A stretch of 64,000 nucleotides of DNA from Deltaproteobacteria bacterium. Lineage in GTDB: Bacteria; Myxococcota_A; Polyangia; Polyangiales; Houyiibacteriaceae. Below the pieces are notes generated by a model. That model was not told the origin of the DNA. It saw only the letters and a program-made list of their open reading frames with translations, and did no database searches. The position numbers and the translations under genes were made by a program. The stretch is from NCBI GenBank assembly GCA_034670305.1, contig JAXMNT010000012.1:32001-96000 (forward strand), read 5' to 3'. Shown here piece after piece: positions 59,742-60,602 of the stretch (its first letter is position 1; each line of letters starts with the position of its first letter).

Positions 59742-60602
59742 ATGCGGTTGGCGGGTGACAAGCAGGTGCGCGCGTGGAGCTCAGGGCAGGTCAAAAAGCC
59801 CGAGACGTTGAACTACCGGACCTTCAAACCGGAGAAGGACGGACTCTTCTGCGTGGAGATCTTCGGTTCGTTTCCGCCCCTGGAGCGCGGCGGGCCCGAC
59901 ACGCAGATCGGACACATCGAACTCTGCCAGCCAGTGGTGCATCCGTGGTTCCGAACGAAGCTCGCACAGCTGCTCGGCGTGTCGGTGATCGAGGTGAACG
60001 CGCTGTGCCTGAGCGAGCGGGCGATGGTGATGGACCCGGGGCCGTCGTCGCTGCGCAGGGGACAGATCGTGACGATCGCGGAGCGGGAGAACCTGCTCGG
60101 CGAATGGGGTGGCGATGTGACGCTGGCCACTGGTACCGCCGAACTGCGCGCGGTGCTTGGGTCCGCCGCGGACGAGGTGTGTTTGAACGCGGTGCCCGTG
60201 TGCCCGCCGTCGATCCGGCCCATGCAGTACCTCGAAGGCAAGCTGATCAAGACCCACGGCTTGTGCGATCTGTACCGACGCATGGTGAACCGCGCGAACC
60301 GGCTGCGGCGGCTCGTGGAACTGAACGCGCCCGAGATCATTCTCGTCAACGAAGCGCGCATGCAGCAGGAAGCGTTCGATGCGTTGATCGAGAACGGTGA
60401 GGGACCGAAGGTCATCACGGGCACCGACAAGGAACGACTCCCTTCGTTGCTCGATGCGTTCCGGGAGGTCCATGGCCCGAACGCCGACCCACTCGCCGGC
60501 GACTACCCGGACACGCCGCTCATCCGCTCGCTCGCGTTGACGCGAGGCAGCGCGGCCGCAAGTTCAGCCCCGGCCAACCCCGACGACTTCGACTTCGACT
60601 GA
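59742..60602 (+). CDS. Stand-alone RNA polymerase beta' N-terminal (clamp) paralogue, non-catalytic
   Basis: [95 protein letters not shown]; no zinc-ribbon cysteines, no NADFDGD. Confidence 0.9.
   Translation: [286 protein letters not shown]

Follow-up and report, generated by a model that had tools for sequence, protein, structure and literature searches.

The window analysed here is a stretch of 64,000 nucleotides from a Deltaproteobacteria bacterium of the Polyangia (GenBank assembly GCA_034670305.1, contig JAXMNT010000012.1, positions 32,001 to 96,000). At 59742-60602 on its plus strand lies an uninterrupted open reading frame (ORF) with an ATG start and a length of 286 amino acids (aa), whose product is a free-standing copy of the clamp module of the RNA polymerase beta' subunit; we refer to it as mini-beta'. 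The protein is homologous to the first ~345 residues of RpoC, and structure prediction gives it the beta' fold. It ends ahead of the catalytic region and belongs to a family of five truncated proteins that retain the clamp helices and in which the basic charge of the corresponding RpoC segment has been reversed. Sigma binding by mini-beta', and a regulatory consequence of that binding, are what we infer from the conservation pattern and from complex modelling. The explanation that we tentatively favour, and would place a little short of an even chance, is a maintained clamp mimic that docks sigma and serves as a sink, as an anti-sigma-like factor or as a chaperone.

A beta' clamp module that stops before the catalytic region

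RNA_pol_Rpb1_1 (PF04997; E 2.9e-28) was the sole Pfam domain found in mini-beta'. The TIGR02386 rpoC equivalog model matched in three stretches with 179 bits, below its cut-off of 963.5, and a phmmer search of beta' chains in the PDB gave an E-value of 4.4e-51. In the phmmer alignment residues 3-44, 55-141 and 139-253 paired with beta' 24-65, 101-191 and 230-344, leaving the zinc ribbon and a stretch of ~38 residues of beta' unpaired. An alignment with the genome's own RpoC located both deletions: the CxC...CxxC ribbon is replaced by a 13-residue scar without Cys pairs, and at the position of a helical hairpin ELRAVL is fused straight to GSAADEV. The protein ends ~33 residues past the rudder, at about beta' 344 plus a tail and ahead of switch 2 proper, and the catalytic Asp-triad region (NADFDGD; Rpb1 domain 2) is missing. 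The Pfam, TIGR02386 and PDB comparisons thus agree with the original prediction, which had described an ORF colinear with the RpoC N-terminus, carrying two in-frame deletions and ending before switch 2 and the active site. The motifs that it had listed (zipper region, GHIEL, lid PPSIRP, clamp helices and rudder region) were all found. Judged by this architecture, it is impossible for mini-beta' to be part of a catalytic enzyme.

An in-frame TGA at 59733-59735, 9 nt 5' of the mini-beta' ATG, makes a start further 5' impossible. The string TGGTATGAG at 59728-59736, 5 nt ahead of the ATG, had been taken for the gene's own promoter box. The string is present, but a sigma-70 consensus scan of 59550-60850 found 0 promoter-like sites, and we therefore regard it as only a string. 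A terminator scan of the same interval also found 0 sites, and no Shine-Dalgarno-like site occurs in 59728-59741. The features of the gene, all on the plus strand, are given below with the evidence for each.

59742-60602, plus strand: mini-beta' gene, 286 codons plus stop (ORF list, Pfam, PDB phmmer, AlphaFold2 (AF2), Foldseek)
59728-59741, plus strand: TGGTATGAG string and the 5 nt preceding the ATG (sequence; promoter scan with 0 sites)
59778-59867, plus strand: N-terminal conserved segment, the zipper region, residues 13-42 (conservation count)
59868-59906, plus strand: 13-residue scar in place of the four-Cys zinc ribbon, residues 43-55 (alignments; AF2 predicted local distance difference test (pLDDT) below 50 at 47-51)
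60156-60161, plus strand: junction L139/G140 left by deletion of the ~38-residue Lys/Arg-rich helical hairpin, beta' ~192-229 (alignments)
60195-60221, plus strand: lid region PVCPPSIRP, residues 152-160 (8/12 conserved residues kept across 146-165)
60258-60392, plus strand: clamp helices, a coiled coil, residues 173-217 (AF2 helices; 24/34 conserved residues kept; predicted RpoD interface)
60393-60449, plus strand: rudder-equivalent loop with its basic residues gone, residues 218-236 (conservation count; charge)
60474-60599, plus strand: family-specific tail, residues 245-286 (alignments; AF2 pLDDT below 50 at 271-286)

The tail contains a degenerate remnant of switch 2, the motif P-D-x-P-L..S-L-A-L, a low-complexity linker and an acidic end, DDFDFD (60582-60599).

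Conservation was counted by taking the residues common to at least 80% of true RpoCs and asking how many of them the window protein keeps. The best-conserved part is the N-terminal/zipper segment (residues 1-45), with 24 of 31 residues kept; the clamp helices keep 24 of 34 and the lid 8 of 12. Elsewhere the count was 11 of 20 for residues 55-99, 4 of 15 for residues 100-145 and 2 of 8 for the switch-2 zone. The stretch just before the clamp helices, which is universal in RpoC, keeps 2 of 7 residues in the window protein and 0 of 7 family-wide, and of 9 such residues in the rudder the window protein keeps 5, with 2 common to all five minis.

Charge follows a similarly uneven course. All five minis are acidic, with an isoelectric point (pI) of 4.97-5.41 and a net charge of -6 to -15, whereas the equivalent segment of real RpoC is basic (pI 9.2-9.9, net charge +9 to +22). 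The same segment has a pI of about 9 in the long fusion paralogues described below. The loss is located in the rudder (net charge 0 in mini-beta' versus +6 in real RpoC), in the deleted Lys/Arg-rich hairpin and, in the clade of the window protein, in the ribbon. As read from its sequence, mini-beta' is a clamp that has shed its nucleic-acid-facing features and retained its protein-docking coiled coil.

The AF2 model of mini-beta' had a pLDDT of 83 and a predicted template modelling score (pTM) of 0.83, with helices at 173-193 and 198-217 and low confidence limited to the ribbon scar and the last 16 residues. Because the 90-row input alignment included true RpoC fragments, the model may be biased toward the beta' fold. 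A Foldseek search with this model returned beta' chains only as its top matches (TM-score normalised by the query (TMq) 0.70-0.76, E ~1e-24).

The genome (7.93 Mb in 105 contigs, 96% complete) has an intact, adjacent pair of rpoB (1459-aa frame) and rpoC (1395-aa frame, 1791 bits) on contig C47. Neither rpoB nor a further rpoC match was found on the contig of the window; the original prediction had named the absence of both from the vicinity and had called for a full rpoBC elsewhere. It had also raised an assembly chimera as a possible source of the ORF. In each of three runs (X1-X3), one independently assembled contig of ~21 kb spans 58600-62600 and crosses the locus with 0 differences. These runs are probably the source samples, so that the result shows continuity of the assembly and not an independent occurrence. 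The GC content of the ORF at the three codon positions is 0.66/0.45/0.85, matching that of four neighbour genes, and this signature is lost in the other two frames.

A rare family and its long relatives

Among 15 billion proteins searched, the family consists of five (P0001, P0002, P0003, P0122 and P0124), 286-306 aa in length and all apparently from Myxococcota. A word-indexed search of 5.8 billion proteins found P0002 (291 aa, 87% identity) and P0003 (287 aa, 86%) close to the window protein; the remaining matches were contig-end fragments of true RpoC with at most 38% identity. P0122, a 306-aa ORF annotated as a hypothetical protein of a Myxococcota metagenome-assembled genome (MAG; G021), came from a search of 88 species genomes of the taxonomic family, and P0124 (297 aa) was added through a profile search. 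Identity for the four further minis (287-306 aa) is 39-87%. In an exhaustive HMMER pass of a five-sequence profile against 1.84 billion cluster representatives, three mini representatives scored 495-538 bits and true RpoC at most 296 bits, and no other family members were found.

Two candidates were rejected. P0185, a public protein of 828 aa that reached 409 bits, corresponds to the N-terminal part of a true RpoC in which one block has been duplicated internally; it probably arose in assembly, and its score against the mini profile is misleadingly high. P0286 looks like a chimeric fragment of true rpoB/rpoC. A scan of metagenome contigs was swamped by real rpoC, its 80 kept loci all being 32-37% identical with no close relative among them, and two degenerate-pattern scans of genome contigs for DNA of close homologues gave 0 matches.

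All five minis have in common a start at MR.A (~beta' residue 20), the hairpin deletion, the truncation point and a tail motif that reads H-G, then L-A, then P-D-x-P-L..L-A-L. Family-wide the proteins end ~30-50 residues past the rudder, and the window protein belongs to the family as so defined. Seventy-nine columns are invariant across the five sequences and are concentrated in two structural elements; H172 and H244 are invariant residues of the family's own. Finding four more short RpoC-N homologues with the same start, hairpin deletion, truncation point and tail motif bears out the proposal that the trimming has been maintained and is not decay. The deletions themselves fared unequally as family traits. 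The hairpin deletion is common to all five minis and also to the long forms, but P0122 and P0124 retain the zinc ribbon CxC..CxxC, so that ribbon loss is specific to the clade of the window protein.

Four of the five minis finish in an acidic ...F-D terminus; P0124 ends sooner, possibly at a contig end. Acidic C-terminal ends after a low-complexity linker (DDFDFD, DDLDFD, DDLEFD, EEEFD and DDFEDFD) were seen in the window protein, P0002, P0003, P0122, P0121 and P0311, and this Asp/Glu-Phe-Asp end is predicted to be disordered. P0121 and P0311 are long forms, and they too finish in an acidic Asp/Phe-rich tail.

P0121 is a 915-aa paralogue from the same genome as the window (contig C50:17053-19797, minus strand; locus L112, also L002:901-3648). 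Its N-terminal part consists of RpoB flap-region and C-terminal pieces (Rpb2_6 and Rpb2_7; TIGR02013 positions 783-888 and 1141-1237) and includes the segment EEKLLRAIFGE, which we take to be the flap-tip helix, the docking element for sigma region 4. Next comes a beta' N-terminal module that has the zinc ribbon but no hairpin, then a degenerate active-site region whose catalytic Asp motif has been substituted, and finally an alpha C-terminal domain (alpha-CTD; PF03118, E 6.6e-14) and the acidic tail. No Sigma70_r2 match was found on contig C50. Orthologues of P0121 occur in G022, G005 and G004, making 4 of the 88 genomes with that of the window included; the G022 form is split into two adjacent ORFs with frames of 310 and 802 aa. 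In public records the long forms are labelled 'RNA polymerase subunit alpha C-terminal domain-containing protein' or hypothetical, and come from Sandaracinus, Polyangiaceae and Myxococcales MAGs. They are not uniform in the elements that they retain: the G004 form (L115, G004:C5:19564-22056, minus strand) has two tandem alpha-CTD copies, and its zipper motif and clamp helices are degenerate.

A maximum-likelihood tree was built from 42 clamp segments. It left out the G004 long form, in which the zipper and clamp helices were too degenerate for motif cutting, and six true-RpoC representatives without the cutting motifs. The minis formed one clade (support 99/95), as did the Myxococcota long forms (100/98), and one branch separated the minis together with the Myxococcota alpha-CTD long forms from all true RpoCs (91/95.9). 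Two derived residues, P68 and V85, are common to the minis and the alpha-CTD long forms; at these positions true RpoCs have Ile (96%) and Leu (88%). Long-branch attraction may contribute to the grouping, yet the shared deletion and the derived residues agree with it. From the tree, the common hairpin deletion and P68/V85, descent from the dead RpoB-C/RpoC-N/alpha-CTD fusion lineage, and not directly from rpoC, is the most likely origin of mini-beta'. The original description of an RpoC-derived miniature therefore stands as to homology and gives way as to direct descent.

A second set of RpoB-C/RpoC-N fusions, without alpha-CTD and 798-1269 aa in length, was also seen (P0210, P0257, P0294, P0303 and P0214). 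The first four, of which P0210 is located on a 2.0-Mb contig, branch inside the true RpoCs of another lineage, and P0214 falls beside them without a resolved position. This group suggests that clamp-type paralogues may have evolved independently more than once.

Sigma docking and the alternatives

Mini-beta' residues R184, E204 and A211 correspond to E. coli beta' R275, E295 and A302 (query position plus 91) and are invariant in all five minis. In the available part of a published study, substitutions at these three beta' positions impair holoenzyme formation (PMC8321222). We modelled mini-beta' residues 1-268 with residues 186-522 of the genome's RpoD in three runs and with three controls. 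The interaction prediction score from aligned errors (ipSAE) was 0.84 in 3/3 runs, and the best of the three controls gave 0.21; in calibration, the mark applied to this score was reached by 58 of 80 solved complexes and by 2 of 110 mismatched pairs. Contacts agreed between runs to at least 79%, and the pLDDT of the partner was at least 83. The predicted interface joins mini-beta' 176-210 to RpoD 439-479 in the canonical geometry, i.e. RpoD region 2 docks on the clamp helices, as the original prediction had anticipated for a sigma of this genome. The model shows that mini-beta' still resembles a docking site, and passing it does not in itself demonstrate binding. The proposal of sigma docking thus gains the invariant R184/E204/A211 and a model that passes its controls, both of them in silico support.

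If the model is correct, mini-beta' would bind sigma region 2 in solution via its clamp helices, as core polymerase does. Unlike core, it could neither go on to bind DNA nor catalyse a reaction. The protein would then compete with core polymerase for sigma and serve as a sink, as a holding chaperone or in the manner of an anti-sigma factor. The setting would be an organism with about 41 sigma-type genes, the genome having 41 Sigma70_r2 matches.

Several observations weigh against a sigma-docking mimic. Since many holoenzyme structures have been solved, the pass of the complex model may be memory. The conserved residues of the clamp helices also build the coiled coil, so that their conservation may be partly structural. 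In polymerase the clamp packs on RpoB and the rest of RpoC, which may make the solubility of an isolated module doubtful. The minis are rare and patchy, being found in 2 of the 88 genomes, and the branch to the clade of the window protein is fast-evolving, with 1.93 changes per site. No sigma or anti-sigma gene is adjacent to mini-beta', and contig C12 has no Sigma70_r2 match. Its neighbours in the window (an RND (resistance-nodulation-division) pump, a GH115_C-like secreted protein, an FG-GAP/UnbV protein, an unknown protein and a 2-oxoglutarate (2OG) oxygenase) show no link to transcription, and the context is not conserved with that in G021. None of the RNA runs listed contains the stretch, a result that is uninformative either way. 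Run X5 contains short contigs of a relative, in which the fragment covering the gene has 25 differences in 195 bases and the upstream neighbour 23 in 466, it being uncertain that both contigs come from one organism. Thirteen listed differences in the gene, of at least 25, fall in 11 codons, 7 with synonymous changes only and 4 with amino-acid changes; on so partial a count, purifying selection on mini-beta' is only hinted at.

Two other explanations are about equally unlikely in our estimation. According to one, mini-beta' is an RpoB binder or assembly competitor, whose exposed clamp face would bind free RpoB, the alpha2-beta intermediate or the RpoB-C part of a long paralogue. RpoB C-terminal pieces are indeed fused right before the same beta' module in the long forms, and the RpoB-C of G022 is on a separate adjacent ORF, which indicates that pairing of RpoB-C with beta'-N in trans exists in the lineage; the N-terminal segment, with its 24 of 31 residues, is also what the mini conserves best. 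However, no obligate pairing is apparent, as G021 has a mini and no long form was found there, and G022, G005 and G004 have long forms and no mini. RpoB binding would also leave unexplained why the clamp-helix surface is retained when other core-facing elements decay.

The second is a decaying or functionless relic, a truncated duplicate of a pseudo-core whose ORF survives as stops are rare in 68%-GC DNA. Rarity (five proteins) and long branches would be expected of a relic, as would the loss of the zinc ribbon, the rudder charges and switch 2, a divergence faster than that of the neighbouring gene in run X5, an unconserved gene context and the lack of a listed RNA run containing the stretch. 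What a relic does not account for is that proteins with as little as 39-44% identity have the start, the truncation point and the tail motif in common, or that 79 columns are invariant, with H172 and H244 as the family's own. The frame-specific signature of GC at third codon positions is intact, synonymous changes exceed non-synonymous ones in the small X5 sample, and the fold prediction is confident.

Considerably less probable is a sink or adaptor for elongation factors of the NusG family, which would dock on the clamp-helix tip through their NusG N-terminal (NGN) domain. NGN domains bind the beta' clamp helices, the sequence of the tip is well kept, and the Foldseek matches include RfaH-bound complexes. 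A PF02357 search of the 96%-complete genome, however, found a single NusG gene, next to rpoBC. This leaves no specialised paralogue to titrate and weakens the NusG-paralogue sink offered by the original prediction, and tying up the housekeeping NusG would come at a high cost. NGN domains on the enzyme also make use of RpoB elements for binding, and these are absent from mini-beta'. Least probable of all, and hardly credible, is a role in nucleic-acid binding, with lid, zipper and rudder working as they do in the transcription bubble: the lid and zipper-region motifs have survived in part, but the charge is reversed to acidic (pI ~5), the basic rudder, zinc ribbon and basic hairpin are gone, and the hybrid-lining segment before the clamp helices keeps 0/7 conserved residues family-wide.

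A phage or defence origin of mini-beta' was considered and dropped; the protein had polymerase-type matches only in PHROGs and no match in PADLOC. Further along the window, between the FG-GAP/UnbV and 2OG-Fe(II) oxygenase genes, a 345-aa ORF (62644-63681, plus strand) has no match in Pfam, PHROGs or PADLOC.

Comparison with known systems and significance

Mini-beta' resembles the RpoC clamp module in being colinear with beta' ~20-344, in its predicted fold (TMq ~0.75) and in its recognisable motifs. It differs in length (286 versus 1395 aa), in lacking the catalytic region, switch 2, the zinc ribbon and the hairpin, in being acidic and not basic, and in its location away from rpoB, with a normal rpoC elsewhere in the genome. 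RpoC1, the gamma subunit of cyanobacteria and plastids, is likewise an N-terminal beta' fragment encoded by its own gene; it retains the catalytic motif and, paired with RpoC2, makes up the sole beta'. Against TIGR02387 (RpoC1) mini-beta' scored 131.5 bits, below the cut-off of 975.9. Together with the missing catalytic motif and the intact 1395-aa rpoC on C47, this upholds the earlier view that the gene is not an rpoC1-type split. By sequence criteria mini-beta' is a member of the Rpb1-domain-1 superfamily that fails as RpoC or RpoC1 on score, catalytic motif, ribbon and genomic role.

The long fusion paralogues are nearest to mini-beta' in the tree (91/95.9) and have in common with it the hairpin deletion, P68 and V85. 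They differ in size (620-1110 aa), in their RpoB flap/C-terminal pieces, zinc ribbon, degenerate active site and one or two alpha-CTDs, and in a beta' part that is basic (pI ~9). A Pfam scan of the 286-aa mini-beta' found neither Rpb2_6/7 nor RNA_pol_A_CTD, both of which are present in P0121.

Known anti-sigma factors, e.g. Rsd, FlgM and class I extracytoplasmic function (ECF) anti-sigmas, offer a functional analogy in that mini-beta' is proposed to occupy the core-binding surface of sigma. Mini-beta' would differ from them by acting as a copy of the core docking site. To our knowledge, the folds of the anti-sigma factors described so far bear no relation to those of core subunits.

A literature search, from which subscription journals were largely and supplements wholly absent, found no description of a stand-alone clamp paralogue or of flap/clamp/alpha-CTD fusions. 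The closest case that it did find is a genome note from 2015 that reports dead beta'-like genes of Beggiatoaceae (MacGregor 2015, PMC4679880). These second genes keep the N-terminal interaction regions and have an incomplete catalytic Asp triad; they lie immediately upstream of sensor kinase genes and were proposed to encode negative transcriptional regulators (PMC4679880). An arrangement of a comparable kind occurs in G021 (L129, C323), where a Ser/Thr kinase gene (7426-9066) lies 70 bp downstream of the mini (9137-10057), both being on the minus strand. This kinase has 546 aa, an N-terminal membrane-like region and a Pkinase domain; no such kinase is present in the window. As described by MacGregor, the Beggiatoaceae proteins differ from the minis in being long, with C-terminal domains and not clamp-only, and in coming from two Beggiatoaceae (Gammaproteobacteria).

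Sigma factors compete for a limited supply of core polymerase, and this competition is central to control in bacteria. If mini-beta' does dock sigma, a copy of the docking site that evolved to stand free of the polymerase would add a new means of controlling sigma availability. Structural biologists would also gain a minimal, soluble clamp-helix module of natural origin. Mini-beta' is real and should interest specialists in transcription, but it is rare and comes from uncultured organisms. The long forms, in which RpoB flap, clamp and alpha-CTD are joined, suggest a wider, undescribed set of polymerase-derived regulators. A more speculative idea, to which we give appreciably less credence than to sigma docking by mini-beta' itself, is that sigma-rich Myxococcota of the Polyangia type have, as a class of sigma regulators imitating the enzyme itself, pseudo-cores assembled from those polymerase parts that contact sigma and activators. 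Such proteins, the long forms with flap, clamp and alpha-CTD and the minis with only a clamp that has lost its DNA-binding charge, may buffer or sort some 40 sigma factors by mimicking the site at which these dock.

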